From the IMG/VR virus record IMGVR_UViG_3300021400_000154, positions 46,615 to 110,614 of that record: DNA of 64,000 bases. One strand, given 5' to 3'. The position numbers and the translations under genes were made by a program. The number at the start of each line of letters is the position of its first letter. Position 1 is the stretch's first letter. Source of the DNA: a virus (lineage: Duplodnaviria; Caudoviricetes). Positions 2 through 57,465 of the stretch are shown piece by piece. A model generated the notes under the pieces. It was not told the DNA's origin and ran no database searches. It saw only the letters and a list, made by a program, of their open reading frames with translations.

Positions 2-529
2 AGCGTTCAATTTTCTCTTGATGGGGAGGACGTCGGTGACCCTATTGTTTGTTCTGACACACAGGACGCGGACAGCAAAACGAGCTTCAAAAATGCTGTC
101 GCTCAGTTTTTCCCGCATGATCCAGGCCAGCAGATGGGAGTTATTATGCCTGAAACCGGTGATGATGTTGACATACAGATTAACTTCAACTCTGCTCCTT
201 CTCTTCCGGAGATGCCAGCTGACGGTGGCACAATGGAGTAGGAAGGTCGTGTTTCCAGCGGCAAGGTCGCGAAGTTTGACAACAAGTCCGCTGCCGTCGG
301 CGAGGCTGTTCTGAAGTGGCCTGTATATGCCAGCGGAGACGACTGTTCCGACTCTGCGATCAAGGGCTACCTGATCATGCACATGTATCGTGCGCGGATT
401 ACGAGAATGCCTGGGTTTGACGATTCATACAAGAGCGCCTCCACGTTCCAGTTCCAGCTCTCTGCCATGGATGCGAAGCGCGATGACGGGAAGATTTACG
501 AGCTGGCGTATAAGGAAAACGATCTGTAA
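2..529 (+). CDS. Major tail protein paralog 1 (5'-truncated; internal TAG at 239-241 read through)
   Basis: Frame 2 is open except for one TAG and ends in TAA. Its C-terminus (DNKSAAVGEAVLKWPVYASGDDC...MPGFDDSYKSA...SAMDAKRDD.KIYELAY) is clearly homologous to the 611-1378 product. Not in the ORF track. Confidence 0.7.
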
Positions 530-610
530 CAATATGATTGACTACACGAAGTCTGTAGGGGGACAGCGTGTTTTCAATATATACAAAAATAAACCAAAGG
601 AGTGTTGCAT

Positions 611-1378
611 ATGCCTAATACATATGTGCCCGCCTACAAGGGCTACATTGCGGACGTGCCGCAGGTCTGGTTCAAGCGTTGCGATGGCGAAGTGTTCCAC
701 TATGACGAGATCACTCAGGCTTCCGTGAACCCACAGACTAACTTCACTGAAATCAACGCCGGTTGGTAGCTGTATCCCGTGGCTTATCTGCCCGGTCAGT
801 CCACCATGGAGATCTCCATGACATCTGGTCAGTTCAACGCCGATCTGTTCGCGATGGCGAACAAGACCAAGTTTAAGACGATTGGTCAGGATCCTCAGGA
901 CACCGAGAAGTATAGCACCTTCAAGACCGAGTCTCTGACTCCTGACGCCACCACTCACAAGGTGACCCTGGCCGAGACTCCTGTTGAAGGCACCGTTGCC
1001 ATTCGTGGCCTGGAGCTGACCACTGACTTCACCGTGTCCGGCAAGGAAGTCACCTTCACCGATGATAAGATTGCCGGTCCCGTCGAGATCTCTTATGAGT
1101 ATGAGGTGAATGGCGCCAACGTGATCAAGATTGACAACAAGTCTGCTGCTACCGGCGAGGCCGTCATGAAGTGGCCTGTGTACGGTGCTGGAGACGACTG
1201 CACCGACAGCGCTGTGAAGGGCTATGTGATTCTGCGGATGTACCGTTGCCGGGTCACCCAGATGCCTGGGTTCGACACCAGCTATAAGAGCGCGGCCACC
1301 AATGCCGTGACCTTCTCCGCTATGGACGCGAAGCGCGACGACGAGAAGATCTACGAGATCGCCTACATCGACGCCTAA
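611..1378 (+). CDS. Major tail (tube) protein; internal TAG at 767-769
   Basis: AAGGAG RBS precedes ATG 611, which is in frame with track ORF 779-1378 across one TAG (INAGW*LYP). It lies upstream of the tail chaperone and tape measure and is followed by a terminator. Confidence 0.7.
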
Positions 1379-1435
1379 TCAACCAAACATCGTTTCTTGT
1401 ATTAAGGATAAATTATAAGGTTATGCAAGGAACTC

Positions 1436-1473
1436 AAGGGGTTGCTGCATAACGCAGCAGCCCCTTTTTTATT
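1436..1473 (+). terminator. Intrinsic terminator
   Basis: AAGGGGTTGCTGC-ATAAC-GCAGCAGCCCCTT hairpin followed by a T-tract. Confidence 0.8.
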
Positions 1474-1497
1474 ACGTATAAGGAAAGAAGGATTTAT

Positions 1498-2034
1498 ATG
1501 CCAGTTATGAACAAAGATCTCCCGGAAGCGAAGGAGAATAATAAAAAGCTTCCTACGAAACGTGCTCTGAAGAAGGACATCCCTGACGAGGCTGAACTGG
1601 ACAAAGAAATACCGGAAGCCTCGGAGCTCGACAAAGAAATGCCGGAAGCTTCTCCGCTTGATAAGCCTCAGCCTCCGCTTGTAGACCCGGAGAACATTAT
1701 CCGGGTTGGCGACCAGGACATTGAAATCAAGCCGACGAAGCTGTTGTACCAGCGGAACAAGACCGCTGCAGCTTACCGGATTCTTGATGTGTACCCTCTG
1801 CCTGACATCCTTGCGATGGATAAAGGCATCCTCGACCCGGAACGTGATGGCGATGCGATCGTATTTGACTTCCTGACCGCCGTGTTCGACGACGGCAAGT
1901 TGGTGGCCAAGTATTACGACACGATGGACTCTGAAACCATTTATCGTGCGGTTCAGATCTTCAAGCGGCTGAACCATATAGACGATAAGGAAGAGGCCTC
2001 AAAAAACCGGGCAGCCAAGGGGACGAGCAAATAA
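1498..2034 (+). CDS. Tail assembly chaperone (lambda gpG-like)
   Basis: Located between tail tube and tape measure genes. Has a slippery site near its 3' end and ~10-aa N-terminal repeats. Confidence 0.7.
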   Translation: MPVMNKDLPEAKENNKKLPTKRALKKDIPDEAELDKEIPEASELDKEMPEASPLDKPQPPLVDPENIIRVGDQDIEIKPTKLLYQRNKTAAAYRILDVYPLPDILAMDKGILDPERDGDAIVFDFLTAVFDDGKLVAKYYDTMDSETIYRAVQIFKRLNHIDDKEEASKNRAAKGTSK

Positions 2035-2345
2035 GCCTTGACGAGGCTGTAGCGCTGGTTGCTGTCTACCTTGGCGAAGCTGATGAATCGAAAATAAACG
2101 GAATGTCGATTCCGTTCTTCAATAATGTATTGGCGGCATTAGGCAAGCGCGTTAACTACGATGCCGTCGTGAACTATGCCGGTAACTCTTTCGCGAAGGA
2201 TTCATGGAAACTGATTCAAGAGGCGAACCCGTTGGTAAAGCCGAGGAAGATCAGTTCCGGTTTTATGGATCTGTTGAACAAGGCTGCGCCGAAGTCTGAT
2301 GCTAAGACACAGCAGATGCTGAAAGAGATTGACTGGGCGAAATAA
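1498..2345 (+). CDS. Tail assembly chaperone, -1 frameshift extension (gpGT-like)
   Basis: A AAA AAC heptamer at 2001-2007. The -1 frame is open from there through track ORF 2103-2345. Confidence 0.7.
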
Positions 2346-2357
2346 GAGGTGATTCAT

Positions 2358-2585
2358 ATGAACCGTGCTTGTTTCTATTATGAGGCAATGATGCGCTCCT
2401 ATGATAAGTTTGTGAATGGCGAGTGCAGCCAGGAGTCTTTTATCCTGGCTGCCAAAGCCTTTGCTGCTTTACGGGAGCCTAACCCATTCAAACAGTGCGA
2501 GGACGAAAAGTTGTTCTCTCAGAATGCAGCGATCCGTCCTTAGGCTGATGCCAAACTTGTTACTGCCGTGAAGGAGGAGTATTGA
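2358..2585 (+). CDS. Hypothetical protein (TAG at 2541-2543 read through)
   Basis: GAGGTG RBS. Readthrough ends at a TGA that overlaps the next ATG (TGATG coupling). Confidence 0.6.
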
Positions 2586-2980
2586 TGAGTTATTTTGACG
2601 TGTTAAATAAAGCTTACGAGCTTGTGGTTGTTACTGATGAACTTACTGGTATTTCTTATCTACAGCCTTCGTACAAGATGCTGCTTCGTGATAATGAAGT
2701 GCATCTGCCAGATTATGATTCAATCGTGAACAATAATGATCCAGAACTTTGGGAGGCTGTGAAGCTTGAGGTTGAGAAGCGCAACGCCATGCTGAACTTC
2801 GTGAACCCTGTGGCTGAGTGGGTGTATTCTGCGATTGCTAACACGGTTGAGCCTGCGATGACGCAGGAGGAGAATGAGCTGCTAAAGAACGTGATGGAGT
2901 ATCTGCAAGCGAAGAACGGGAAGAAGACGAGGACGAGGAAGAAGAAAGGCGCTCAAAGCGAGAGTACTCTGTCGCAGTGA
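2585..2980 (+). CDS. Hypothetical protein
   Basis: AAGGAGGAG RBS; translationally coupled ORF. Confidence 0.65.
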   Translation: MSYFDVLNKAYELVVVTDELTGISYLQPSYKMLLRDNEVHLPDYDSIVNNNDPELWEAVKLEVEKRNAMLNFVNPVAEWVYSAIANTVEPAMTQEENELLKNVMEYLQAKNGKKTRTRKKKGAQSESTLSQ

Positions 2981-3013
2981 TTTTTTGTCGTAAGGCCAAT
3001 ACTGATAACGGCT

Positions 3014-3841
3014 TTAATGCAAATACATGTAAAACAATATATCTGGGCCGAACGCATATTTATCTATGGCTATGTTTTGCGAAGGAACGAATACTTTTTT
3101 TACTGGACTTTTGTAGAAACAAAATTTAGCAATCGATGTTATGCTCGGTGGCAAGATTACAGTATGTAAATTTTCAAAACCGCAAAACGCCTCCTCTTCG
3201 ATTGTAAGGATTCCATTTCCAATGATCAAACAGGACAATTGTTCTGCATGCCCGTTTGGATACCAGGAAGGAACTTTATCGTCTATCAGCTCATAAAAAT
3301 TAAAAGATCTTCTCCCTATCGTTGTAATGTCCGTGCCGTTAATCGTACTAGGGACACAGAGAATCTCTTCGCCTGATAAATCTCCGTAGGTCAACTTATT
3401 TCCTGTTACTTTCCAAAACGTAGTTATTGTGTTTCCGTTCAGCAACGTACCGTTTGCTTTATAAGCGAAATGTAAAAGCAAATCAGAATATGACATAGAA
3501 ATCCTTTTAGCGTCATATATTAGCCTATCTGACAACTTGAAGTATAAGCGTATTCTATGAATGCCATTTACACAATTATGAGATATTAAATGCGCAGTTT
3601 GCTCAGTTCGCCCATTGGAAAAACGAGACGCTGCATCTGCAGAAATGGTATGAAAAGCATTCATATCTATATCCCTTTGTTTGGTGATCATGTATTCACC
3701 AAACAACATATGCTGATATTGGTTGTTGCTTTTACTCGTCGAAACAGTATATTGTAATAAAGCTATTTGTTTGTATTCGGCATCGCTTATTTCGACTTCT
3801 GCAACAACACATCCGTCAATCATGAAACAGTTAATCTTCAT
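3014..3841 (-). CDS. Moron-like gene with C-terminal BspA-type leucine-rich repeats
   Basis: TTIGRRSF, LTIEEEAFCGFENLHTVILPPSITSIAKFCF and IAIDKYAF repeats. AT-rich, antisense to the tail operon, with its own promoter. Confidence 0.65.
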   Translation of the reverse strand: MKINCFMIDGCVVAEVEISDAEYKQIALLQYTVSTSKSNNQYQHMLFGEYMITKQRDIDMNAFHTISADAASRFSNGRTEQTAHLISHNCVNGIHRIRLYFKLSDRLIYDAKRISMSYSDLLLHFAYKANGTLLNGNTITTFWKVTGNKLTYGDLSGEEILCVPSTINGTDITTIGRRSFNFYELIDDKVPSWYPNGHAEQLSCLIIGNGILTIEEEAFCGFENLHTVILPPSITSIAKFCFYKSPVKKVFVPSQNIAIDKYAFGPDILFYMYLH

Positions 3842-3863
3842 GATAACACCCCCCTTATGTGGT

Positions 3864-3892
3864 TATATAACATAAGTTTGCCTTACTGTCAA
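3864..3892 (-). promoter_or_regulatory. Sigma-A/70-like promoter of the LRR gene
   Basis: TTGACA-17 nt-TATATA on the - strand, upstream of an AAGGGGGG RBS. Confidence 0.6.
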
Positions 3893-3915
3893 CACTTCGA
3901 AAAGGAGGTAATAAT

Positions 3916-6900
3916 ATGCCGAATGATCAAGTAGTACTTGATGTCGTTTTTCAGCCTCAAGTAGAAAGCCTGATTCAATAGTTGCATCAGGCATCACAAA
4001 TTGCGTCAGATGACGTTCAAACAATGCTTACCGAATCAATAACTCAAGCTGGATTATTGGCGAAAGAATCTGAAGGCTTTTAGTCTCAAAGTATGCCTCA
4101 GGAATATGTTCAAATGGCACAATCTTTAATGAATGCCATGAATAAACAAGTTCAAGACATCATCGCACAGCTTAATAAGGCATCGCAAGATGCAACTTCT
4201 TCTGGGTTTGAGGATGGTATTATCCAAAGAATAAAGACTACAATAGGTTCGCTTACTGCGAACATTATAGATCAAACTTTTTCAGTTGGCGCTATGAAAA
4301 ATATTGTTGGTCAGATAGCACCTGATATGGCACAGTCTTTTGCCCAAAACTACAGAGATTACTATTTGCAAGCAAGTAGACTTATGGCAAGGCAAGCCAA
4401 AAACCCAGCAACAAACGGCGAATGGATGAAGTACCTTGATTTAGATTCTGGCTTTGCCGCTGGTCAAAGAGCTATGATGCAACATTTTGGGTTGTCAGAA
4501 GCTCAAATGAGACTGATGCAAGAATCAGTAGTGCGCAGCCAGCCAAATCAAATACGTATCGATTACGCCAGAAATGCTGTTCGATATTCAGGTGGGGCCA
4601 TGAAGAAAGTTGGCGTGATCCCACAATATATGACATATCAAGAACGGCTACCTGCTTTTTATCAGGGCTTAAGCAACCAACCACAAACAACAACGTTGTC
4701 CCCTGATGAAAGGCAGGCTTTACAAGCAGAAGTAAGTGATGAGCAATGGAAAACAATCAGAAGTATAGCCGCTAGCAACCCTTCTTTTGAAAAAGCTCTT
4801 ATTATGGCTGGATTAGCCCAAAGAACAGTCCATAACAAAGCGGCAGGTTAGTTAGTTATGCCACAAAAGCCAGTAAGTACTGAATTGGTTGCAAGAGCGA
4901 TTGGCCATTTACATAGAGATATAATGATTCCTTAGCTCGAGGGAGCGCCATCTAATTACAGAAAAATCACATAGACATCTGGTGAGGATCAGATGGCAAT
5001 GGCAAATGCAGATTAGAAAACAGTGTTAGATATTATCGATGCGTTTCATAAACTTGCTCCATTGGGTATTTCTCCCGTATATGGTGATGCTGTTACACGC
5101 CCATATAATCCACAGACTGGCGTTTCGCGTGTACGAGGTGCGAAATCTACTGCAGCTCCAGAAAGATATCAGATTATGAGTTTAACATGGGATGATTTCC
5201 AAAAAGGAGTTATGCTTGATCCACATGGCCCTGTTCAAAGCGAATATGAAGAAGGCGCAAGGGGCACATCGACAAACAAGATGATTCTTGAATCGGGTTT
5301 CACAAGAATGCTCGGCATGCATGGTAACAACACGTTCGGTAATGGAAGCAAAACAGATAATAGTTCGCCTTCTATAATACAAATTGACTTGTAGGATCGA
5401 TTATTAAAGAAACGTAAAGACGGAGAGTTAGAATGGGAAAATGGACACGTTGTTCAAGATGAAGATACTGCGAAGCTAATCGAGCGTATATTTACTATTC
5501 CGCAAGGCCATTCTCACCCGAGAGTTCAGTTTGGCCAAACTGGTATTCATTATGTTCCTACTAATGTGAAGAATGGCGTGATTACTCTTGGACGGGAAGA
5601 TGCTGTTGAAAGTGCAATCAGCGATTCTATAAGACTGACAGGGCATAATGTGCTCGCTAATATGGTTGACCCGAATACTGTGTTCTAGACATATACTGAT
5701 TTGAATAAACAAATCGAGGCATACAACAGAGACTTAACTCCGTCTGTGCCTATTGAAAGAATGGGCGGAAAGCTTCCTGATAAAAATAGAATCGCATTTG
5801 TTGATCTGTCTTCGTTTACAGGGAAAAAAGATAGTAAGACTGGCCGTAATGACTATCACGATGGTTCATCCTTTTTTATGCCTGGCTTTATTCCAGGTGG
5901 CAATGCAACATACAGAATCGCCGGACAAAAGGGCACAGCTCAAACAGTTGATTTCCGTGCAATGATTAGAGATTTATACGGCGATGTTGATCATTTTTAT
6001 TTGCCTGCATTGAATGCTCCGAAAGAATACAAAGATGCATTTAACCAGCATGGTATTGAAAAAGTTAGAGAAATGATGCAACAACGAGGAGAGTTGTAGA
6101 AATTCGAAGAATATTTCCTTGATGCGTTACAGTTTGATGCGCTTATATAGGACTCAGTCATTAAATCGCCTGCGTACAAAGGCTTGACGAACGCACAGGC
6201 GCAAGATCTTTTTTATAAAACAAAAGAAACCCCTATGGGTATGGGCATTGTACAAACAGCAAGCCAGTTTTTGACAAAAGGGAAACTTTCTCTTGGCAGA
6301 CAGTTATCTCAGCATTTAGACTTAACACCAGAGCAGATAGCAGAAAACAGAGAGTTGTGGGAGAACTATATAAATATGCTCAGATATAGGCCAGAAGAGA
6401 CTGCAAAGAGGTTGTTTTCAAATCCTAACAATTCTTTGGATTCTAAGATAATGGCTAACCCTGGATTAATGTGGGATGACCCAGAAGCAAGGTAGATTGT
6501 GCTAAACGAAATATCTAAAGCTATGATTTCTATGGCGAACGGAGAATTGTTTTAGGATGGATTATCGCCTTCTGCTCTGGCCGCAGCGAACCCAGCAAAG
6601 ATATTAATGGATGCAGCCAGCAGAAATGGCCTTAAGATACAGAATCCATTACTTGCGCGAAGGCTTACACTTGGAACTGGTAAACTTGCTGCAGGATTCT
6701 TGGATGATGACGAGATAGCAGTTGGAAGATGGCCAATGACACCTGGAGAACAATATAGTGCCCAACTATAGAAAGATTACTTGGAGGCTGGAAGAAAGTA
6801 CGGGCTCGCAGATGACGTTTTTTATACTGATGCCGGATTTATCGGAGCAATGGGAGGCGGAGATGTCGACGGCGACACGATCCAGGCATTAAGAGGAAGA

Positions 6901-9900
6901 CTTCGTGATTATGTAAAAAACACAATAACTGCAAGAGCTGGTAAAACCGGGCAACGTGATGCGTCTTTAATACCAGAACCTTTGCCAGCAAATCAAAAAA
7001 TAGGGCCAAGAGTTTTTGCAGATCAAATGTTCAGAGCTGCTCAGCAGCAGATCGAATTAGGAATGGTCTCTAGAGCTCAAGACGCTTTATCCCAACTTCC
7101 TTGGATTGACCCAGAAATAGTTAGACAATATGGGCAAGCGAATGCAGACTTAGCCATGCAATATGACGTAGATTCGACTTTTTTGAAGACAGGCGTATTG
7201 GCGAACTGGACTCAGGCCTCAAAAAATGCAAGGTATTTAGGCAGACCTTTCAGTCATGTATATAAAGACCTTGTTGGAGCTATCCAAGAAGGAGATTATT
7301 CGAAAATAAGAAAAATGTAGGAGTTGAACTTTCCAAGTCGGTATCATGCTTTGACGGCTTAGATGATGGAAAGTTTATACCAGAATCCAATAAGTAACAC
7401 AGCTATTGACAAAATGATTGCTGCTCAAGAAGATTTAGAAGGAATACCTCAGCTTGAACAAGGAGAGCTATATCAACGAAGTCAAGCCGCGTTCTTAAGA
7501 GAAAACATACGAGTGATGTAGCAATTACTCTCTTCAAGAGCTGGTTTTGTTTCAACCGAAGATTTTGAAAACCTTGGAGCAAAAGCAAAAAAGTGGCAAG
7601 CTGACGTCCAAACAGAGCTTGCTCGACCTGGCATAGACGAAAAAAGAAAGAAAGTTCTTTTGGAGAATTTGGGACTTGCACAACAGCAACAATACCGTTT
7701 AGATCGCTTAAGACAGTTCGGTGTTATTGAAGGAGCTACAGACGGTTATGTTAGCTTGTTTAAAAACACTAGAGGCACTTCTGGATAGTCTGTTTTTAGT
7801 GTTGCGCAACAGCAAGCCACGGATGCAGAAGCAGCTGAGGTTGCGGCAAGAGTTGGCGCCAATCCAACAATGATAGCAGCGATGAGAACTGCTGCGGAGA
7901 ATGCGCAAATCGCTGACGCTAAACGAAAAGCCGAGAGCGCGAGATATAGTTTCTCTCAGTTGGCTCTGTTGGATAAAAGCCCTGAAGAATGGTTTAATCG
8001 GTACATAGCTAAATCAAGCGAAACAGAAATGACGCCAGCAATACATATTGGCAACGTTGTTGATAAACTTACGACAGAATGGGGTTACAGGAGACTAGCT
8101 GAACAAAAAGGGCAAGGAAAAATGCTTACTCCTGATGAGTTTGAAAAAATGTTTGTTGCCTTGTTTACAGGAAACTTTGATCCATCTTCTTTTATAAGCG
8201 GTTTTGACGAGCGCGAACGCAATAAGTTTACAGATGCGGCGAAAAGGCTTGGTTTTCAAAATGGAATGGAACATCCATCTGACAGATATAGAAATGCTTT
8301 AGCATATGTTAGAGCGATGCCTTTCATGTTGCCAGATGAGGAAATATTGGAATGGGATGATAATGGAGAGAAAAAACCATCTGTTCAAGTACGCGTTCGC
8401 CCTGATTTCGGAACAACTCCTTCGGGAAGCAGGGTAAATAGTATTGGTTTTGTAGACTTGATCACGAGAAATAAACATACAGGTCAGATTACAGAATGGG
8501 ACACAAAAGCAAATAGCGACCAAGAAGGACGTACTGGAGGCATCAATCAAGTATATTCTTATAGTACAGATCCTGCCTTCCAGCCTTCTCATATTGGAAT
8601 CTTAGCGTACAATGATCCTGAACACACGGTAACACAGCTTCCTTTTTCTAAAGAAAGACAAGATGAAGTCCGAGCTATGACTAGGGATATTCTTGCTCAA
8701 CGTTTTTTAATCGCTGAGCATGGAGACAGTTGGGATTTTATTCGGAATCAGTTCTATCCAGGAATGAACGAAGCAGCAGAACGCACGCAAACTGAAGCCG
8801 AACATCAACAAAGTAGATCTTTTATGGAACAAGGAACTGGAATGGCAATGGCCAAAGCAATGACGTTGCAAAATGATATCACAGAATATGAACAACGCAT
8901 GCAACAAATAACACAACAACTACAAAATGGATTAAGGCGTAGAAGCGGGGATCAAACAGATAATCCTTGGGAGTCTTTTGATGCGCAGTTGAATGCTTCA
9001 TTTGATGCAAGAAGACGACAGTTGGTAAAAAGGGGAGCCAACAAAGAAGATTTGGTAGGTTTAGACGAAGAGAGAAGAAAAGCTGCGGAAATGTTCGACA
9101 AAGCTTTAATGGAAGCGGCCGGTGGAGAAAAATCCGATATCGTTCAAACAATAAACGCGCTAAATGATTAGTTCGCTAAGCGACGGTCTGATTCCGGTTT
9201 GACAACTTACATTCAGGAATTTGAGGGCATTGAAAAGGCAGTTAAATAGGCTACTATGGCGTTTGACGTGTTTGAACAAAAGATGGCAAAAAAGAAGAAC
9301 TTGTCGCAGAAAGATCAAGAAGCTCTCGACCGTGGAAGACAGCAAAGAGAAGAGCTTACTGGTTTGGCAGACATACAAAGGCGCGCTATATAGGAAGAGG
9401 CAAAACGGAAAGCATTGTCGCAAATAGAAGATTTTGCAATAGATCAAGGTACCATGGAAATGACTCCAGAAATAAGAATGCAGCGTATCAAACAAAAAAG
9501 GGCAGAAGAACTGATGCGTACTCAGTTAGCCATAGGAGAGTTAAAAGATAAAGGCCTTTTATCGGAAAAAGATTTCGAATCAATGTCTAGCAGTATTACT
9601 GATATGCTTGGCGATCAATAGCTGGGTGCTTTTGCTGCGCGCGCTGAACGAATCCGACTTGGATTAGAAACAAAAACGCCTGAACAAATGAGTCAGGAGC
9701 GTTTGAGAGATATTCGAGCAGCGATTGCAGCATAGGTTGAATCTGGAGGAGACAGTCCTGAAGTTGCCGCAGCAAGAGAAAGAAAACGTGCAGCTGATAA
9801 AGCTTTGGAACAAGCACAACAACAAGCTGCGGAAGCGCAACAGGCAGCGGGTGGTAAAACAGTTACAGCTGAAGATGTAGCGGCGGCAAATGCTACAGTA

Positions 9901-12900
9901 GTATCAGCAAAGTCCAGACTTAAACAGTTGCAATAGGAAAGAGATCGAATAAGTACAGATATACAAACCCGCACATCTGCTCTTACAGGAACTCAGGCTG
10001 AACAAAAAGCTCGTCGAGATGCTCTTCAGTAGGCATATGGCGAAGCGAAATCAGCCTATGAGCAAGTTGTAGCTGCCCGCCCTGCAGACGGAAGTAAGGC
10101 TCTCGAGGAGAAAAAGGCAGCTTTGCAGGCAGATTTAGAAAAGCGAAAGAAGATTGGTACTCCGGAGCAAGCGGAAGAAGCTTTAGCGCGAGAAAAAGCA
10201 GAATTAGAGAGACTTACTGCAGCAAGCGGAACTGCATAGCAATCTCTGAAACAAGCCCGCGCAAGCCAAACAATAATGGATCAAAGAAAGGAACAGCAGG
10301 ATATTATTACAGCTGCGACAAAGGATTTAGAAAAACTCAAGCCAGATCAGGAAAGAATAACAGAGGCACACACTAAAGCTAAGGCAGCCAGAGCTGCTGA
10401 AAAAATACATAAATTACAACCCCAACTTGGTGGGAAAACCCCGGAAGAAATCTTGCAAGAAGAAGAAGACGCCAAAAAGGAACTTGAACAGGCTCAGAAA
10501 GAAAAACAAAGAGCAGAGCATGATGCAACTGCTTATTGGGGTAGCCGAAAGAGGAAGGGTTTGAGTCAACAAGGCGACTTTAAGGCAATACGTGGAGAGC
10601 TTTTAGATCACCTTAGTAAACTCAGTCCCACAGAGCTGAAAGACCTTGGGTTTATATAGCTTGCACCTGATAAAATGGACGAGGATGCATTGGCCTCTAC
10701 CCTCAAATACAACGCTGGTGCTTTTTCTAGATCTCGCGACACATCCCTTTCAGGACTTGCAGCTTAGTTTGTTGAAGCCTGGAAAGCGGAGAAAGATTTC
10801 CGACCGATTTCAGGAAGAGTAGAGGAAGCACAAGGGAGAGCCGCAACAGCTCAAGCAGCAGTAAAAGGACTTGAACAAAAGGCCGAAGCAGCAAGGAAAA
10901 TACAAGATCTTTTGCGTGATACTCCTGGAGCTAAAGAAATGCTGTCAAAAACAGACGAAGAACTCGCCGGCTTTAAAGAAGCGGAAGATGCTCAGAGCGT
11001 ATCCGAGAAATAGCAAGCAGCACAACAAAAGATAAGCGCAGCTTTGCAAGAGTTAGCTAAACTTCCTGAACCTAAAGAAGTTGATGTCAAAGGGAAACAA
11101 CAAGAAGCTGCCGAAGCGGCTGGAGCAGTGGATGCTCAAAAATTGAAGGTTGAAGCAGCAGAACAAAGATTAAAAGACGCTAGAGAACTGGACACACGAA
11201 TCAGAAGTTTTCCCACTCTGACAGAGCTAGAGGAACAAATCGAAGCCGAAGGGCAAAAGCAGACCGATGCTGCCGAAGCAGAACGCAAAGCAAAAGAAAG
11301 AATGGATCAAGCACAAGAAGCGTTAACTGCAGCTACGCCACAAGACACTACAACAGCTCAATCAGAGATCGCAAGCTTGAAACAACAGCAAGCCCAAAAC
11401 CAAACGCAGATAGAAGCTCAACAGGCAGTAGTAGCACAGGCGGAAGCAAACCTTGCGGCAACAAATGCTGCTGCTCAAAACCCTGATGAACGGATAGCCA
11501 ATGCGAATGCAGCTGTTGAGAATGCGCAAAATGAAGCAAACCAAGCAGCCCAGGATCTGGAAGACGCAATAAAGAAACAGGATTCCACTGCGAATCAAAG
11601 TATTGACGAGCAAATGAAACCCCATGTTGAAAGAGAAAACCAAAAGCTTGAAAGAATCCGTCGGAAAAGCGAGCGCGCCAGAGAAGATTTCAGGCGTATG
11701 CTTACCGGCGAAACATTGACTCCAGAGGAAAGAGCTGCCAGGTCTGAAGAAGACATTAAATTCGCGCTTCAGGAAGCAAGAGACAAAATGTATGAAGATG
11801 GCAATCAAGATTGGCAAAAGCTTGATGAGATCCTTGGCAATGATAGTATGTGGGCATAGTTCAGGCAGCGTACTTAGCAACAGGAAAAGACCATGGACCA
11901 GCTTGCTCAGAACGATCTCGAGCGTACTGCTCAAGACCTGCAGAACAGAATAACCGGACACATGGAAACGAAGGAAGAAATGGAGAACAGAGCGATCCAG
12001 ACGTTCAGGGATCAAATCATTCAGAAGCGTGATGCAGCGAAGAAGAAAGGATTGGATACTTAGGCTTATGACAGGATGCTTGAGAAGGATGAGAATGGAC
12101 AAGAACAGCTCAGAGGCGATTTACAGGGTGCCATCAAGGAGCAAACGGATTTACAGAGACAACAACAGATCGCTCAGCGGAGAATGCAGAATCTCGGTAT
12201 TCTCAGGCGCGTATCTGGTTTCACAAGCACGACAGATGCCGCTGCTCAATATGAAGCTCAGAAGCAACAGGACCGTATTGCTTTTAAGAATGCAAGAGAC
12301 AAAGCTGAAAATACAGCGGAAGCAGAACGCACAGAGCAAGATCGTGCTCTCCTGGCGATGACCGAAAAGGATTGGGAACGGCAATACGACGAGCAGAATC
12401 TTGGAATGCAAGGGCTTGGTACAAGGGACGCTGCGAGAAAAAAAGCACAAGACGATTACCGCAATAATAAGGGTTATATTCAAGAAATCCAAAACAGCGC
12501 CTTGTAGGATACAGAAAAGGCAGCAAGACTTGCAAGATTTTCCAGGTATCTGGGACAAGACAGACAGCTTATTTCCGAGGAAGATTATGTCAATCAGGAA
12601 CTGTAGTTATTTGATGAAAGAGCTGATATAGCAAGAAGAAATGCTTTGCAAGGTATAGATCAAGCGGCTGATGCTTCTATGCAATACAGGTTAGGAAAGC
12701 TTTCTAGTGGGCGGCGTGCGTTAACTAGCTTTGGTATGACGTCGCAAATGGAGCTTTCAAGGCGTTTATCAGCTTTCAATCAATCTGCTGCCGCGCGCAG
12801 GAGTAGCGTCTCTTTATCTTCAAAAATCAAAGAAACAGAGACAGAGCTCGCCTCGCTCACAGATGCAGACAAAGAAAAAAGAGCTACTCTTGAAGCCAGG

Positions 12901-15900
12901 CTACAAGCTTTGCGCGATCAACAATCATTAGCTGATACGCAGTCTGAAGAAGCAGAGCAGAGAGCTCTCGGAAAAAACAAAAAGTATCAAGCCGCAAGAG
13001 GAAAATACGATCTCGCAAGACAAGCTTACGATGCCGCGTTGAAAAACAATGATTCTGATTAGATGGCAAACGCAGCACAAGGTATGCGCGACGCCGAATA
13101 GGAAATGCAAAGAATCGCGGCAACATCTATAAGCGCGCGAGCTTCCCTCTCTGCTCTTGGGCAAACGTTTGCTAGGGTTGGCATGCAGTTCGGAAGGCGC
13201 ATATTCCAGGCAGCCATTCGTGAAGCGACTCAGTTTGTCAAAGTATATGATCAAACCATGCATCAGATTCAAGCCATAACCATGAAATCCAACCAGGAGA
13301 TGGCTACAGTCAGATCTTCTACGATAACTCAAGCTATAGGTTTAAAAACCTCTGCGACAAACGTTGCACAGGTCAAATCAGAGTTATATCGGCAAGGGTT
13401 ATCTGATTCGCAAGTTAATGACAGAACTGATTCGATTATAAAGTTTTCTGCTGTCACAGGGATGAAGGCAACGCAAGCAACAAAAGCTCTCACTACGGCG
13501 TTGCAAAGCGGACTTGTTAATAATATTCATGAGGCAATGGACGCGATGGTCGCTCTGGGCGATAGCGCAGCAACGACAGCTGAAGAAATAGCAAAAGGTA
13601 TGCAAAAATCTGCTGCGGCTGCAAAAGTTGCAGGCGTGTCTTACGGTGAACTGACATCCATGTTAACAGTTATCACCAGCAAAACTCAGCTTGGCGGCAA
13701 TCAAGCAGGCACAGCGCTTCAAACGATATTCAGCCGGATGCGCAGAGTAACAAACGAAGGTATAACCAGTGATGAAGGCGGAGAAATCACAAGCGTCAAT
13801 GATGTCGAAGAATCTCTTCAACGTGTTGGCATTTCTATGAGAACAGACGCTAACAGTTTCAGAGATACGTTGGATATCCTTCGCGATCTTGCAAAAGTTT
13901 GGAATGATTTGAATGACATACAGAAGAACAATATCATGTATAATATGGCTGGCGCAAGACAGAGCAATATGTTCTCTGCTTTAATGGAAGGATTGGCTGA
14001 TGATAATGGTAAGACATTTGATAAATATCTTGGGCTTACTGAGGATAGTGATGGGATAACTCAGAGCAAATACGAAATCGTAATATCAAACATCAATGCA
14101 GAACTCGACGAACTGAAAACCACATTCGACGGGCTTGTAGAAGCAGTCACAAACAATGGATTGTTAACGTTCTTCATCGACCTCGCAACAACCATTACTG
14201 GTTTTGTCGCAGGAGTTTCCGATGGATTAGGAGCTATCCCTTAGCTTCTCTGGGCTATTGCTGCTGTGTTAGACGTGGTGAAGATTAAAAGCGCTGCAGT
14301 GGCCGTATTCAAAGGATTGGCGAATCCTGCTACGTTAATAGGGCCGATTTTAGGCCTTCTGGCTGTTGCAGGAGTAGGCGCTTTGGGATCACACATAAGT
14401 GGATCAAGAAAAGCAACAGAACAAAATACTGAACTGAAACGACAAGCCGATTCTGACTTTCTAGAACATGCATCCAGTGTTCGTACGGATAGCATAGAAA
14501 AAGTGGAAAAAGCACTTGACAAAGTAAAGCAAATGCAAAAGATAGATGTCGATATGGAAACAGAAGAAGCCCAAAAAGCGCTGGAAGATCTCAAAAGAAG
14601 CACAAAGGCGATAGGTGGCAATATCTCTGATTGGCCAAATGCCGTAAGAGAGGCTACAAAAGCTATAAATGAAGCGAGAAAAGAAAGTGCACTATTTTTA
14701 CTCGGACTTGGGGATACTGGGGCAAAGGATCTCCAGACAAAATATAATAATAATGTTTAGACATATAATGGTGCCATCTAGTAGTCTGATTTTGAAGACG
14801 GCGGTATATTATATGGCAGATCAATTTTCCAGGGTATATCTCAAAAGGACTTAAAACCTTACTCAACACAAGACGGTAAAGGCGGCTATACTTACGAAAG
14901 CTTGATAAATGATCATTAGAAACTTGACATGAAAGCGCCTCGTAAATCTATGACTTATAGAGATGCGATGAAACAAGATTTAGAAAACATTGGTATAAAG
15001 ACAGAGGGGCTGTAGGACACAGACTTGATCGATTTGCACGGTGTATACTATTACAGTGGCCTTTCCCAAAACTTTAGGCGCGTTAAATACAACAAGAATG
15101 CAGGCAATCAAAATCGTGATAACCAGGAATATGCTTACGAATTTTTTAAACAGCTTTCTGACAACACAAATCAGCAAAATATAACCACTTCATCATTGAA
15201 ACGTGTAGAATCATGGTTTGATCTGTGGACTAAAACAGCAGGATATGAAAACTTTATGAATGCTCATGGTGGACATATAGGTTCATATACAGCAGGTGGT
15301 TCCTTTGAAGACTTTGCATCTGTTATGGCAAAACAACAATACGAAGGAGTTAGAAATGAAGTTATTGGGTTATGGGATTAGGACGAAACAAGAAACGAAA
15401 TCGCAACAAGAGCTGCTGAAGAAAATGAAATTCTGTCTAATATGGACAGCTTGTTCGTTCAGTCGCTTATGACTAACGATGATGCATATGGGCCAGCTGT
15501 AAAACTTTGGACTTAGGGTAACGAAAAGTTTAAGGATCGCATTGTTTCCGAATTTCTTGATTACGCAAAGGACCAAGGTATTACGCCGAATTATACAAAT
15601 GTTAAAGAGTGGCTAATGAAACAAATTGAAACTTATACTTCTGATGAATTCCTGCGGATGTATGGGTCTCCCGAAGACTTTGAGTATTATTATTCAGATT
15701 CAGAAGGCAATCCATTGTTTGGTGCGCATGATTTATAGCGAGAAGCAATCCTTGAGGCGTACAACGAAGAAGTTGCGCTTGCCGAGAAAAACGGTAACAC
15801 CAAACGGGTTGAGGTACTTAAAGCGCTGCAAGAAGAAGTAAGTAAGTATAATCCTTTGAAGACAAACAAAATATATACGTCATCAGGGGCGCAAGTTGGC

Positions 15901-20355: not shown

Positions 20356-20356
20356 C

Positions 20357-20394: not shown

Positions 20395-20415
20395 ATAAGG
20401 AAAGAAGGTGAAGGA

Positions 20416-36948: not shown

Positions 36949-36950
36949 GG

Positions 36951-44403: not shown

Positions 44404-44488
44404 CGCGGAGTACAGGATTTGAACCTGTGGTATGTCGCCATACGACGGTTTTAGAGACCGCTGCAATAAACCACTCTGCCAACTCCGC
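44404..44488 (-). tRNA. Amber suppressor tRNA (anticodon CUA) with a tRNA-Ser-type body
   Basis: GCGGAGU/ACUCCGC acceptor, G73, GCGGU-CU CUA AA-ACCGU, 5-bp variable arm GUAUG-GCGA-CAUAC, T arm ACAGG-UUCAAAU-CCUGU. Confidence 0.92.
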
Positions 44489-44491: not shown

Positions 44492-44576
44492 CGCGGCGTG
44501 GAGGATTCGAACCTCCGGAATCTTTCGATTCGACGATTTTCAAGACCGTAGCCTTCAGCCTCTCGGCCAACGCCGC
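44492..44576 (-). tRNA. trnS: tRNA-Ser(UGA)
   Basis: Cloverleaf with CU UGA AA loop, long variable arm and G73. Confidence 0.93.
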
Positions 44577-46466: not shown

Positions 46467-46537
46467 AGCGCGATACCGGATTTGAACCGGTGACATCTGA
46501 GTGGAAGTCAGAAGTGTTGCCACTACACTAATCGCGC
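46467..46537 (-). tRNA. trnG: tRNA-Gly(UCC)
   Basis: Cloverleaf; UCUGA-CU UCC AC-UCAGA; U73. Confidence 0.92.
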
Positions 46538-47299
46538 AGAAGCCGCTGGTTGCGGCTTGTCGTCAAAGTAATGTATATCTGCGAGGATTTCGTCTATGCG
46601 CTTTTCTACATCCTCGTCATATCGGATTTCGTAAAGCGGAATATTGTGTTCTTTGCAGTAGTCACGTTTGAGCTGATCTGTTTCTTCGCGTTGTTGTTTG
46701 CCAAAATCACCGCGATCTTTATAATGTTGTACTCCTTGATATTCTATCAAACACAGCGTTTCTTTGTTTTTGTTTTGCAATGCAAAATCAAACTTAAGCA
46801 TATAACCGTATTTGCTTTTCAGATCGCTAAACTTATATTGCGTAGAGAATTCTATGGATTTTTGAAGCAGTATTTTTCTTGTTGTTTCTTCGCCTATAGA
46901 AATGATGCATCCACAGCTAGTAGTGCTCCCATCTCGCAAATGATGACTACTTACTATTGTCTCATTTCCGCAATCACATTTGCATCTCCATGTTACGCAT
47001 CCATTTTTATTCCTCCCGGAGCATTTACCAATAACCAACAAGTGTCCAAATCTTTTCCCCATTATATTTTTTACTTTTATTTTGCGACTTAATTCTGATG
47101 CTTTTTGTCTGCGGTAGCACCCACAACTTTTTGTATCGCCTCTCAAAAGACTGGGCGATCTTACAGTAATTGTATTTCCACAAGAACATTCGCATATCCA
47201 CATCACGTCCTTGTTTCTTTTACTCAAATCTCGTTTTATAACTGTTAGACGTCCAAACGTCATTCCAGTTAAATCTTTCAAAGGCGGCAAAAAAATCAT
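46508..47299 (-). CDS. Free-standing homing endonuclease-like protein
   Basis: Two DLTG..FGRLTV...WxCxCxCGN...TKSCGC repeats plus a C-terminal SIGE...FDF...IEYQG.QHY...D..K..YC nuclease domain. AT-rich. Ends at 46523 if TAG stops, or 46508 if it is read through. Confidence 0.75.
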
Positions 47300-47476: not shown

Positions 47477-47671
47477 TTACCACACAGGATCGTAGTCGCC
47501 TACGTCAGAATCAGGGTCAATGCTCAGCTTGGCTTCGATAAAATCGGCCACGGCAGACTCCACAGCGTCGTGGAGAATGGGAACCAGTCTCTCCAGATCG
47601 CTTTTCGTCTTCGCGTACCGCTCCAGATAGCTGTCCAACATGATTTCAATTTCGAGAACGTCGCCGTTCAA
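47477..47671 (-). CDS. Hypothetical acidic protein
   Basis: AAGGAG RBS followed by TTG start. Confidence 0.5.
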   Translation of the reverse strand: MNGDVLEIEIMLDSYLERYAKTKSDLERLVPILHDAVESAVADFIEAKLSIDPDSDVGDYDPVW

Positions 47672-48173
47672 TGGAACCACTCCTTTTTTTCTTTCCATTA
47701 CGTTCATTTTCGAGGTTGCGGATTTTGTCACCGTTCACCCTACCGTATTCCGCGATTAAAACAGCTTCAGCCATGCCGTCTGAAGGCTTTTTGCAGCGAG
47801 AAGTCGGCAAAAGAGAGAGTTCTGGATGCATTTCCTGGCATTTTTCAATGGATTTTTGCTTGTCCGAGCCCAAATCATAGGCTTTTTTCCATTTTTGAGG
47901 CGGTACAAGCAGGGTTTCAATGCCAAATGCTGCCAAAACTCCCTCGATGAAGCCCGCAGACTTGCCGAAGTTGAACATGGAGACCACGCCTTGTCCCGGC
48001 ATGGCTCCAACCTTCTCAACTACGGCATAAATCTGCTCTTCGTCGTGATTTTCGGCGATTTTTCGCATCTCCTGAACGAAAACCTGGTTATCCCATGGGA
48101 AAACCTATGCCCGGGTCTCCCCAAGAATCGCAAAAGCACCCTTCTGACCGGGATCAATGCCGATAACGGTCAT
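47646..48173 (-). CDS. RuvC-like Holliday junction resolvase; TAG at 48105-48107 read through
   Basis: VIGIDPGQKGAFA lies upstream of the TAG, in frame with VVEKV...GVVSMFNFG...PQKWKK...DGMAEAVLIA. Confidence 0.82.
47688..47722 (-). repeat. 35-bp element, copy 1 (putative phage promoter/operator)
   Basis: TCCGCAACCTCGAAAATGAACGTAATGGAAAGAAA, identical to 52739-52773 and directly upstream of an RBS. Confidence 0.75.
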
Positions 48174-51234: not shown

Positions 51235-51882
51235 TTACAGAATGTCGTCGAGCGACTTGACAATATGATGACAAACGCCGTACTTCATGCAGTCATCCGC
51301 ATCCAAAGTCCAGTCGTTGTTCTTCTTCTTGGAGAGCGTAGAGCTCGGAATCTCGGTGCGCTCCAGGATGTATTTCTTCATCCTCTGCAGATCCTGCTTA
51401 TAAGACTCGGAAGCATCCATGACCTTCACCGCATCGCCACGGAAAGCAGCGCTGCCCTCGTGAATGATCATCTGGCTGTTCGCCATCATCCAGCGCTCGT
51501 GTCCAGCCAGGAAGATCAGGGACGCTGCAGAAGCTGCCGTACCGATATTGATGGTGTACACAGGCGTCTTGGATGCGGTAATGACATCCACAAGCATCCA
51601 CATGTAGCTCAGATCACCGCCGGGAGACATAATAAACAAGCGGATCGGCTTGCGGTCCTCCACAGCGACACCCCTGTCCTCCATGTTCCAGCGATAAATC
51701 ATCCGCACCAGTGTGGTGATATTGCCGTCCACTTCTGTCTCCAGGAAGATCTTGCGCTCCTTCTCCAGGATATAATAAGAAAGCATATCCGGTTCCGGCA
51801 GACGCTCATCTGGAAGATTCAGCGACATGATGGTAGGTTCGATCAGAAATTCGCTCAATGGTTTGTCCTCCTCATTAGTCAA
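51235..51882 (-). CDS. clpP: ClpP-family protease subunit
   Basis: IMSPGGD, AASAASLIFLAG, MIIHE. Confidence 0.85.
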   Translation of the reverse strand: MTNEEDKPLSEFLIEPTIMSLNLPDERLPEPDMLSYYILEKERKIFLETEVDGNITTLVRMIYRWNMEDRGVAVEDRKPIRLFIMSPGGDLSYMWMLVDVITASKTPVYTINIGTAASAASLIFLAGHERWMMANSQMIIHEGSAAFRGDAVKVMDASESYKQDLQRMKKYILERTEIPSSTLSKKKNNDWTLDADDCMKYGVCHHIVKSLDDIL

Positions 51883-52729
51883 TATTCAGCAAGTCAGCCA
51901 GTTTTGCTGTCTCGCTTCGGACAGACTCCTGCAGATGCATGTAAGCGCAGAGCCTGTTGCCTTTCAGTTTGTTGATGGCAGCCTGCAGTCCGTTGTCCTT
52001 CTCAAAGGCTTTCGCATCAATCTGGCGCACATCACCCTCCAGGATCAGGATGGAACCTTCTCCTACCCTGCCCAGCAGTAGCTGAACATGTTCTCTGGTA
52101 AGATGTTCAGCCTCGGAACAGAAGATGATCGTGTTCTTGATGTCCCTGCCTCGCAGGAAACCCAGGTGCTCCACTTCGATCTGTCCACGCTGCATATAAA
52201 TGTCCAGCATTTCCTTGCCACCGATATGATCAGCCAGTGGCATGGCCCAGACAGACATCTTCTCCTGGAATGAACCCTTCAGGAAGCCGATCGGGTTGGA
52301 ATCCTTCACTTCGATATTGTTCCTGACCCACATGATCTTGTCGACAACACCGGCCTCCAGTAAGGACAGGGAGCAAGCGCAGGAAAGGAATGTTTTACCT
52401 GAACCAAAAGACCCCGTCATCATTTTGACGGTGGTCGTCGGATCCATCAGCATGTCCAGGGCGAACTGCTGCTCAATGTTCTTCGGATAGATCTTGCCCA
52501 TGAGTTTCAGCGAGCTTTCTACCGGCTTGCGCTATACGGTTTTATACTTGCCGTCCTGATATTTCAGACGGTCCACAGGTTTGCCTGTCTCGGATGAGAT
52601 TACGGCGAGGTATTCATTCTCCAGCAGGCCATAAGGGTTCTCCTGCTGGTAGACTTTGTCCAGCAGCGGATCGCTGTCGAGTACCTTCTTGAATCCGCGG
52701 TAATCGCCCTAAAGTTCAACCAAAGGCAT
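51875..52729 (-). CDS. phoH: PhoH-family ATPase; TAGs at 52709-52711 and 52532-52534 read through
   Basis: GSFGSGKT, IGFLKG, FLRGR, EAEHLT, LLGRVGEGS, GD..QID. GAGGAGG RBS before ATG 52729. Confidence 0.85.
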
Positions 52730-55932: not shown

Positions 55933-55933
55933 C

Positions 55934-56146
55934 TCACACACCTTCTTCCTTCTGATTAATCCAGTTGACGGCGTCTTTGAAGGACATCAGCGTTCCGTCT
56001 ACCTCAAGGATGGGAGCCGAGTTGAAACCGCGTTTCAGGATCTCATCAGCGCCCTTTACCACAGTAAAAGGCACGTTCTTCTTCTTCAGAACTGCCTCGA
56101 GGAAATTACACTGAGGACAGTCCGTCGTAAATAAAGTAACGTTCAT
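55934..56146 (-). CDS. Glutaredoxin/NrdH-like protein
   Basis: CPQC, SAPILEVDG. Confidence 0.8.
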   Translation of the reverse strand: MNVTLFTTDCPQCNFLEAVLKKKNVPFTVVKGADEILKRGFNSAPILEVDGTLMSFKDAVNWINQKEEGV

Positions 56147-56156
56147 GGGAACCACC

Positions 56157-56357
56157 TCACATATTATTAAGCATATAGATGTCAGGATTCGCTGAGCTGT
56201 TGTAACCGATCCACAGCATATCGATGTCGTTCGTGTTCTCGCCAAGCTCATCGCTTGCATAGTTTACAATGCTGTCGAATGCCGCGTCGGCATCACTGGC
56301 CAGCACCACACCCTGATAATTGCCCGGAGTATTCAGTCTCCACTGATAGACCTCCAT
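56157..56357 (-). CDS. Hypothetical protein
   Basis: Coupled small ORF. Confidence 0.5.
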   Translation of the reverse strand: MEVYQWRLNTPGNYQGVVLASDADAAFDSIVNYASDELGENTNDIDMLWIGYNSSANPDIYMLNNM

Positions 56358-57013
56358 CAGCCATCTACCTCTTTCTCTTCGAAATATTCCTGGTAAAGAT
56401 CATCAAACACAGCAGGGATTCGTTCGTGAGCCTGACGCAGCAGATCCAGCATCAGCTCACGCATGGGTGGATAGGCAGCAACAGAGCAGCGCAGCGCAAA
56501 AATATGCCGCCACTCCCGCAAGTTAGCCTTCATGATAATCCGGCAGGCGGTAGAGTTGGGCAGCACTTCCCTGGCTTCCTGCGGTTTCGCGCCATCCTCG
56601 ATCAGGTTTTTGTAGGCGAGCTCAGCCATTCGCATGGAACTGTACCACATGGCACTGCGGTCATCCTCGTCGGAATCCTGGCACCAGTTGGGTCGAATGA
56701 ACGTGATATCGCCGGTTTTGGCTTCCTGAATATATCTCTGAGACTCAACACAGAAGGAAGCGACCCTGTGTCTTGTCAGTTCCGCAAGGATTGCTCGTGA
56801 GGTGGTAATGTCCACGGTCATGTCCGCAAACTCAACAGGCGCTTCATGCCCTCTGCTGATCAGGTTCGGCACCATGGTACTCCAGGATTCATCCGTAATC
56901 CTGTCCTGGCTGGCATAGCAGTTTCTCGCGGCATACTCAATAGCTTTCGCACATGCGATGCCTTCCTCTTCGGATGGCGAGAGGATCTTGACACTCTGAT
57001 TCGCAACAATCAT
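56357..57013 (-). CDS. thyX: Flavin-dependent thymidylate synthase
   Basis: GHEAPVEF, ELTRHRVASFCVESQRY, AREVLP, NLREWRH. Confidence 0.93.
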   Translation of the reverse strand: MIVANQSVKILSPSEEEGIACAKAIEYAARNCYASQDRITDESWSTMVPNLISRGHEAPVEFADMTVDITTSRAILAELTRHRVASFCVESQRYIQEAKTGDITFIRPNWCQDSDEDDRSAMWYSSMRMAELAYKNLIEDGAKPQEAREVLPNSTACRIIMKANLREWRHIFALRCSVAAYPPMRELMLDLLRQAHERIPAVFDDLYQEYFEEKEVDG

Positions 57014-57465
57014 TCGTCAGACACCTCCTCGTCATCAAGGACGATGTCTTCGTCTTCCTCATCCTCCGCAAGCGTGTCTGCGATAATGTCATCGATGTTC
57101 TCCGCCTTGGCTTTAACAAGTTCCTTGTCTGGGCCGATGGCTTCAACGTCTGCGATGTACAGCCTGACGTTGTTACCCTTCGGAATAGTCGTGCTGTCTG
57201 TGCCTTTCGCATCTGATTTTGCGATGTAGCTCAACAGTCTGGCCATGGTATAGCAGGAAGCGACCACTGTTCCGTTGTCCATCAGGAGCACGGTCTTGGC
57301 GGCGCGCCTGCCAGCAGCATTAACGAGAGTTCCTGCACGTCTCTCTTCGAGCAGGATCTTTTTCGCCTGATAGAACTTTGCTGACATGATGGCAGTGACT
57401 CGTGTCGCGCATATCTACATGCTAGGCGATACAGGGATAAACTTTATGGGCAGCATGTATCCCAT
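57010..57465 (-). CDS. RemA/DUF370-like protein; TAG at 57415-57417 read through
   Basis: KFIPVSPSM*ICATRVTAIMS...AKKILLEERRAGTLVNAAGRRAAKTVLLMDNGTVVAS matches the RemA pattern. Acidic C-terminal tail. Confidence 0.65.

Follow-up and report, generated by a model that had tools for sequence, protein, structure and literature searches.

The TAG-recoded prophages Garnet and Topaz (23-25 kb) have integrases that are free of TAG (Borges et al., 10.1101/2021.08.26.457843); in both, structural and lysis genes are broken up by TAGs that align with glutamine, a standard-code host is predicted, and recoding has been proposed as a gate between lysis and lysogeny. Borges et al. found only TAG read as glutamine and TGA read as tryptophan among phages whose code differs from that of their host, a limit that they ascribed to GlnRS and TrpRS being tolerant of suppressor anticodons (10.1101/2021.08.26.457843). 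The crAss-like, Lak and phAss-1 phages that use code 15 carry their own suppressor tRNA(CUA), recode late genes and switch code over short distances within a family (PMC7886860, PMC9523058, PMC10607447). In them TAG means glutamine, as confirmed by proteomics in PMC9523058, and different stops (TAG or TGA) are switched. Here we describe a 64,000-nucleotide stretch (the window) of a Caudoviricetes phage of the rumen, IMG/VR record IMGVR_UViG_3300021400_000154, in which TAG is a sense codon and, judging from the sequence of the phage and its relatives, is very probably read as serine through the phage's own tRNA(CUA).

Like Garnet and Topaz, this phage (G000 below) has structural and lysis genes fragmented by TAG and an integrase without it, and it resembles the code-15 phages in having its own tRNA(CUA), recoded late genes and a family within which the code switches. 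Unlike Garnet and Topaz, it has a 110-kb genome, a TAG that would mean serine and a class-II suppressor of the serine type; unlike in the code-15 phages, the same codon appears to have two meanings, serine or leucine, within one family. We found no report of TAG read as serine or leucine in phages in the searchable literature, where the reports were of TAG as glutamine, TGA as tryptophan and, in hosts of the Candidate Phyla Radiation, TGA as glycine. What is new is the amino acid, together with one family that holds two meanings for the same codon. The coexistence of recoding with an integrase and attP, which an initial annotation of the window had considered less common, had already been described in Garnet and Topaz (10.1101/2021.08.26.457843).

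TAG is a sense codon

We compared genetic codes with a codon-usage gene caller written for this analysis, which was run under code 11 and with each stop as sense and replaced a simple coverage count of long open reading frames (ORFs) that had failed to separate codes in short loci. Coding density rose from 0.761 (140 genes) under code 11 to 0.872 (112 genes) with TAG as sense. There was no comparable gain with TGA (0.775) or TAA (0.746) as sense, and three standard-code relatives, at densities of 0.84-0.88 under code 11, gained nothing from TAG read-through. Of the 112 read-through genes, 55 end in TAA and 57 in TGA; they are densely packed and abut one another. The initial annotation had expected code 15 to raise coding density over code 11 and read-through to restore gene ends that abut the next gene, and as to the frames it was right on both counts; the meaning that code 15 gives to TAG, glutamine, did not hold up, the evidence favouring serine. 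Frames were interrupted solely by TAG, never by TAA or TGA, and homology to relatives and protein family matches continued across TAG sites. All of the interrupted genes that had been named at the outset (both tail tube paralogs, tape measure, Dit, Tal, baseplate, holin, RuvC, PhoH, PLD and RemA-like) do contain in-frame TAGs. The features concerned are as follows, in window coordinates and with names from PHROG and Pfam.

2..35565, plus strand: window part of the late (virion and lysis) operon in the gene table, carrying most sense TAGs
2-529, plus strand: paralogous virion protein, start upstream of the window; carries a TAG; 45% identical to the 602-1378 product (E 7e-84)
602..1378, plus strand: virion structural protein (tail-tube paralog), TAG at codon 56; phrog_2729
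3916..20355, plus strand: giant tape-measure gene, 5,479 codons with 57 TAGs (10.4 per 1000 codons) and no TAA or TGA
20416-21606, plus strand: Dit, 1 TAG; phrog_33
21619-27027, plus strand: Tal-like tail protein, 7 TAGs; phrog_6211
27008-28954, plus strand: next tail gene after the Tal-like gene, TAG-bearing
35248..35565, plus strand: holin, TAG at codon 65; phrog_6918 (E 1.4e-10)
47646..48173, minus strand: RuvC-like Holliday junction resolvase, sense TAG at codon 23; phrog_1770 (E 3e-33, residues 1-147)
51875..52729, minus strand: PhoH-like ATPase, TAGs at codons 7 and 66; PF02562 (135 bits)
53608-54048, minus strand: PLD-like gene, possible sense TAG
57010..57465, minus strand: RemA-like protein, sense TAG at codon 17, within the Pfam domain PF04025 (residues 10-74)

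The chance of a 5,479-codon frame free of TAA and TGA, computed from the region's own trinucleotide frequencies, is about 1e-83 for the tape-measure gene. An earlier estimate of about 55 TAGs in this gene was close to the 57 counted, and the TAG-TAG pair noted at 14779-14784 corresponds to codons 3622-3623; likewise, the resolvase TAG described as lying between IGIDPG and the rest of the enzyme is codon 23, directly behind that motif. The tape-measure protein has a single Pfam match, PF10145 (PhageMin_Tail) at residues 3143-3346, and its N-terminal 2,500 residues match no family. A giant tape measure is a trait of the phage family, as standard-code relatives keep intact ORFs of 4,943-5,919 amino acids. 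The GC content of the gene is 43% compared with 50% for the genome, and it favours CAA over CAG, unlike other late genes.

Sequencing or assembly errors, or genome decay, might also place stop codons in frame. The TAG positions are, however, common to independent IMG/VR assemblies from other samples whose DNA differs by 4-14%. Two of these, G001 and L017, share TAG positions in head and tail genes, and L114 does so in the resolvase and in PhoH, where both TAGs are kept at 96% protein identity. As the same positions recur in independent assemblies of DNA otherwise diverged at 86-96% identity, and frames are broken by TAG alone, this explanation is refuted and has virtually no probability left. 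By this comparison of assemblies, the TAGs are not consensus errors, the outcome that would have spoken against the initial annotation.

A second alternative is that TAG is a leaky stop, with slight read-through and many truncated products, so that it regulates expression without reassignment. This idea draws on the termination of at least two minus-strand genes by TAG, on the RF1 of the candidate hosts and on the lack of any RF2 or anti-RF1 gene among those found in the phage. However, the base following sense TAGs (+4) shows no bias (p 0.70), so TAG acts as an ordinary codon rather than as a context-dependent read-through site. A gene with 57 TAGs would give a full-length yield of 0.25% if each codon were suppressed at 90%, and of 56% at 99%; at ordinary read-through rates there would be no product, although a full-length tape measure must be needed because relatives keep the giant ORF intact under the standard code. 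The major capsid candidate, too, contains 3 TAGs. We regard a leaky stop as very unlikely. TAG is a sense codon in this phage, which has the features of stop-codon-recoded phages: interrupted conserved genes, a gain in density, its own tRNA with the matching anticodon, and enrichment of TAG in late and lysis genes with a TAG-free integrase.

The suppressor tRNA and the amino acid at TAG

Two neighbouring tRNA genes of the window bear on the amino acid.

44404..44488, minus strand: amber suppressor tRNA(CUA), 85 nt (ARAGORN; Rfam tRNA, 58 bits)
44492..44576, minus strand: tRNA-Ser(UGA), probable parent of the suppressor, 3 nt from tRNA(CUA)

The tRNA(CUA) folds as a cloverleaf of class II, with a long variable arm containing a 5-bp stem, discriminator G73 and the anticodon loop CUCUAAA. 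Its D stem has 3 bp, G10-C11-A12 pairing with U23-G24-C25, and its architecture is that of the adjacent tRNA-Ser(UGA). The bacterial serine identity set consists of a long variable arm and G73; SerRS recognises these along with the acceptor and D stems, and not the anticodon. The tRNA(CUA) is 72% identical to the adjacent tRNA-Ser(UGA) and 76% identical to the CUA tRNA of the relative G002, compared with only 43-52% for five leucine tRNAs of the phage family. The order suppressor, serine and proline tRNA also occurs in the near relative L114. Exact-pattern scans of IMG/VR for suppressors of the serine and leucine types matched only in this phage family. A search of the phage genome for a release factor or the core of a class-II aminoacyl-tRNA synthetase found neither, and without a phage synthetase, charging would have to fall to the SerRS of the host.

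A precedent for such a tRNA is the supD (serU) allele of E. coli, a tRNA-Ser with a CUA anticodon that inserts serine at UAG, SerRS ignoring the anticodon. Unlike the present tRNA, supD is a laboratory allele in a standard-code cell, where it competes with RF1 at moderate efficiency and serves no set of about 90 designed-in sense codons.

We also examined related proteins. Pfam searches with ten head and tail proteins gave almost no matches, and relatives were used in place of Pfam-based, Codetta-style inference. A terminase search yielded 22 related IMG/VR contigs, four of which were fetched whole; two whole phage contigs from a metagenome-assembled genome (MAG) were added later. Phage proteins with X at each TAG were aligned to six-frame translations of the relatives, conserved flanks were required, and each candidate amino acid was scored by summing BLOSUM62-derived log-likelihoods (lnL) over columns.

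Serine ranked first at all flank thresholds (13, 17 and 32 columns), ahead of alanine by 0.6-5.2 lnL, threonine by 4.9-9.3 and glutamine by 5.5-8.7. The weighted share of serine was 41% at TAG columns compared with 53% at true serine columns, whereas that of glutamine was 7% compared with 52% at true glutamine columns. In standard-code relatives the TAG columns align mainly with serine and alanine. Serine stands opposite codon 56 of gene 602-1378 in 14 of 14 relatives, capsid codon 27 in 10 of 12 and codon 322 of the Tal-like gene in all five; at codon 17 of the RemA-like gene it is found in the relatives G004 and G005, with alanine in G003. The paralog of gene 602-1378 has a real serine codon opposite the TAG at codon 56. 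Six giant tape-measure proteins, aligned at full length with MAFFT, gave 11 usable TAG columns, which hold A, S, N, D, Y, V or T but never glutamine. Close relatives of the tape measure were lacking in IMG/VR and amounted to one 9-kb contig at 50% identity in JGI metagenomes, leaving most tape-measure TAGs unaligned.

The nearest relative, G001, has a TerL that is 96% identical. Between the two phages TAG swaps with TCG at 4 sites, each with 11-12 of 12 flanking identities, while TCT, TCC, GCG, CAA, CAG and CCT were each found opposite TAG once. TAG and TCG are one base apart, and the exchange is synonymous if TAG means serine.

The first rival meaning is glutamine, which code 15 assigns to TAG and which crAss-like, Lak, Garnet/Topaz and phAss-1 phages use; the published phage cases of TAG recoding that we found are all of this kind. 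This reading can also point to a capsid TAG column that is glutamine in 14 of 14 relatives and to the single CAA and CAG swaps with G001. The deficit in likelihood and the low share of glutamine at TAG columns speak against it, as does the tRNA: a suppressor of the glutamine type would belong to class I, with a short variable arm, whereas tRNA(CUA) is class II and groups with serine tRNAs, and the phage tRNA-Gln retains its UUG anticodon. We therefore consider glutamine extremely unlikely.

Alanine, or several small residues inserted ambiguously through a mischarged suppressor, is the runner-up by column likelihood, and several TAG columns are alanine in relatives. Mixtures of serine and alanine are nonetheless what BLOSUM predicts for true serine columns, and the TAG/TCG swaps with the nearest relative favour serine. 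Moreover, AlaRS requires a G3:U70 pair; because tRNA(CUA) has G3:C70, charging by AlaRS is excluded. This leaves alanine with only a slim chance.

Several observations weigh against serine. The well-aligned capsid codon 54 is the column with glutamine in every relative, and PhoH codon 66 corresponds to tryptophan, asparagine or tyrosine. Only about 17-32 of about 90 TAG sites fall in alignable columns, and taken alone the columns separate serine from alanine by just 0.6 lnL at the loosest threshold, so that it is the tRNA body and G3:C70 that rule alanine out. The suppressor is merely 72% identical to its neighbour, which implies that the duplication is old or that another serine tRNA was the parent. 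Finally, the candidate hosts have RF1, and a gene with 57 TAGs could be read only if each were suppressed with about 99% efficiency, for which we found no means. On balance, the tRNA type, the aligned columns, the TAG/TCG swaps, the paralog and the tape-measure columns together make it very probable that TAG is read as serine.

Uneven use of TAG, the integrase and the candidate host

The window covers bases 46615-110614 of one 110,614-bp contig whose first 107 bases recur at its end, which indicates a complete genome of 110,507 bp that is circularly permuted or terminally redundant. The IMG/VR record lists direct terminal repeats and 100% completeness; the GC content is 50%. A plus-strand block at 31.6-82.2 kb of the genome, extending to window position 35565, encodes the terminase, portal and capsid candidates, the two paralogous virion proteins, the giant tape-measure protein, Dit, the Tal-like protein, further tail proteins, an NlpC/P60-SH3 endolysin and the holin. 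The minus-strand block forms the remainder and spans the contig ends; it encodes a tyrosine integrase, a Toprim/DnaB primase-helicase, DNA polymerase III alpha, NrdD, ThyX, dUTPase, ClpP, PhoH, the RuvC-like resolvase, a PD-(D/E)XK nuclease and a tRNA cluster. Three further features of the window are needed here.

35756..35801, plus strand: attP-like copy of the 3' 46 nt of tRNA-Cys(GCA), from anticodon stem to 3' end, between holin and integrase
35908..36966, minus strand: tyrosine integrase; PF00589 (104 bits, residues 165-337)
46508..47299, minus strand: DUF2726-type endonuclease ORF; TAG at 46523-46525, inside tRNA-Gly, is the likely stop, with a TGA four codons on

Late plus-strand genes contain 82 TAGs in 16,020 codons (5.1 per 1000), compared with 13 in 15,112 codons (0.86 per 1000) of minus-strand genes, an odds ratio of 6.0 (Fisher p 1e-12). 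About half of the 13, including the one in the integrase ORF, precede the likely start, in N-terminal stretches that lack homology; real sense TAGs on the minus strand are those of the resolvase, PhoH, the RemA-like gene and perhaps the PLD-like gene. TAG also appears to terminate at least two minus-strand genes, each with a backup TGA. One is the endonuclease, and the other is the primase-helicase, whose homology stops at residue 612, with the TAG at codon 613 and a TGA four codons further on. Two more minus-strand ORFs, at genome positions 16138 and 29818, may end in TAG. The initial annotation had described the reassignment as genome-wide, with all gene ends that were checked in TAA or TGA except for the endonuclease ORF that runs into tRNA-Gly. 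TAG is indeed reassigned and the endonuclease does run into the tRNA, but the primase-helicase likewise appears to end in TAG, and 'genome-wide' is too strong because TAG is skewed to late genes and still seems to end some minus-strand genes. The distribution resembles the split into early standard-code and late recoded genes described for other recoded phages.

Three TAGs in the N-terminus of the long ORF called as terminase are doubtful as sense codons, as they fall within or beside a tRNA-Met gene and precede the start that is probably the true one. This tRNA-Met(CAT), at genome positions 33043-33114 on the plus strand, lies just upstream of or overlaps the terminase start and is conserved in G001, and the first 26-40 codons of the terminase ORF are doubtful.

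The lone TAG of the integrase ORF (codon 9) lies upstream of its homologous part; homology to relatives begins at residue 48, beyond which the gene is free of TAG. The attP-like tRNA-Cys fragment is 107 nt from the integrase gene, and no tRNA gene was called at its position. A tRNA fragment next to an integrase is the classic layout of an attP that targets a tRNA gene, and this anatomy suggests that the phage is temperate, as the initial annotation had proposed. No integrated copy of any family member was found in a TerL search covering 401 genomes of one family, and the complete relatives are all circular or terminally repeated contigs, including two binned in G006, an Acutalibacteraceae MAG. 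These two are different standard-code family members, one of 100,103 bp with a 141-bp terminal repeat and one of 136,073 bp; contigs C9 and C1 of G006 had been considered as integrated prophages, and both proved to be whole phage genomes, C1 being circular.

The attP-like fragment is 96-98% identical to real tRNA-Cys 3' ends in 4 of 401 genomes of the family of G006, while none of 401 matched among genomes of the family of G007, a Lachnospiraceae MAG. Identifying a host from the att sequence, as had been suggested, thus led to candidate hosts in the family of G006, the host itself being a prediction from this match. The prfA gene scored above the curated cut-off in 4 of 5 candidate-host genomes of this family, so the likely host would terminate at TAG. 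An anaerobic Firmicute host would be consistent with the NlpC/P60-SH3 endolysin, NrdD and Pol III alpha. Another genome of the G006 family contains a distant terminase homolog with 7 in-frame TAGs (L095, G156:C15:21993-23429; E 1e-43), suggesting that this bacterial family may also be infected by TAG-recoded phages from other lineages.

We propose that the amber codon was captured as a seventh serine codon. The resident class-II tRNA-Ser(UGA) would have been duplicated, the anticodon of the copy would have mutated to CUA, and the host SerRS, being blind to the anticodon, should charge the copy with serine. The gene for tRNA(CUA) belongs to the minus-strand (early/middle) tRNA cluster. A naive host would be able to translate early genes and the integrase, which avoid TAG and in some cases end in it, whereas the TAG-bearing virion, tail and holin genes might be completed only after the suppressor has accumulated. 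Such an arrangement could gate late and lytic functions and, in a temperate phage, keep them silent in the lysogen, on the model of Borges et al. (10.1101/2021.08.26.457843). Late in infection, RF1 of the host would presumably be out-competed nearly completely or neutralised.

The window and the rest of the genome hold a few other elements. The tRNA cluster includes a full-length ROOL RNA between tRNA-Gly and tRNA-Thr (window 45489-46054, minus strand; RF03087, 278 bits, model positions 1-574 of 574). A single minus-strand gene in the late operon (window 3014-3841) encodes a BspA-type leucine-rich-repeat protein (PF13306, 44.8 bits); its coding score is weak and it may be a moron. Outside the window, at L001:4790-7627 on the minus strand of the same genome, a 945-residue protein has a weak match to PF05183 (RdRP; 23.9 bits, barely above cut-off) and fits a YonO/QDE-1-type two-barrel RNA polymerase. 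The DUF2726-type endonuclease, situated between tRNA genes (46508-47299), and the PLD-like gene (53608-54048) are partly or wholly absent from L114, which is otherwise 86-96% identical in DNA, and they resemble recent insertions.

The phage family and its TAG-reading lineages

In-frame TAGs were also found in G003, a 92-kb relative, and in L006, a contig from a different sample. At the 44 usable TAG columns of G003 the relatives have leucine in 31 and mostly isoleucine or methionine in the rest, with leucine ahead by 18 lnL, and the tape-measure alignment agrees. The tRNA(CUA) of G003 is also class II, with discriminator A and an encoded CCA end, and is 63-72% identical to leucine tRNAs compared with 44-53% to serine tRNAs. 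By these comparisons, the lineage of G003 and L006 appears to read TAG as leucine.

In the terminase tree, G002, G001 and G000 form a clade (support 100/99) whose sister group (support 89/86) comprises G003 and L006 together with a standard-code pair, L013 and L014; rows L008-L010 of the TerL tree were extracted out of frame and left out of the conclusions. All the recoded genomes contain a tRNA(CUA); seven standard-code relatives (G004, G005, G008, G009, G010 and the two MAG contigs) lack it. TAG ends just 1-6 of about 100 genes in the standard-code relatives G004, G005 and G006:C1, and being so rare as a stop in the family, it would have hindered capture of the codon little. Two captures of TAG with different meanings are the simplest reading of the tree; a single capture followed by a change of meaning and a reversion is a less simple possibility.

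We conclude that the family, rumen phages of about 100-150 kb with probable Clostridia hosts, has probably captured the amber codon at least twice, as serine (G000, G001/L114 and G002) and as leucine (G003/L006), each time through a class-II tRNA that acquired a CUA anticodon and is charged without regard to the anticodon, while other members keep the standard code. Comparable shifts are known from yeasts, in which CUG has become serine, alanine or leucine, and from chlorophycean mitochondria, in which TAG is leucine (NCBI tables 12, 26, 16 and 22). There, as here, codons shift through tRNAs for serine, leucine and alanine, the synthetases of which are blind to the anticodon, and related lineages differ in meaning. 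Unlike these cellular or organellar genomes, the present phage would overlay its code on that of a predicted standard-code host.

For annotation, these results imply that code-15 translation puts glutamine at about 90 probable serine positions in this phage; if the conclusion for the family is true, code-15 translation of all TAG-recoded phages misplaces a residue at every such site. They also raise the question of how 57 TAGs in one gene are read in a host that has RF1 by a phage that has no release factor. The family offers natural, presumably efficient, serine and leucine amber suppressor tRNAs from Clostridia phages. A natural phage that reads TAG as serine, with a sister lineage that reads it as leucine, would show a second and mechanistically simpler route to recoding, by way of synthetases that do not read the anticodon, and would mean that close relatives can assign different amino acids to one captured stop. 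If so, 'anticodon-blind' synthetases would be a general route to new codes for phages.

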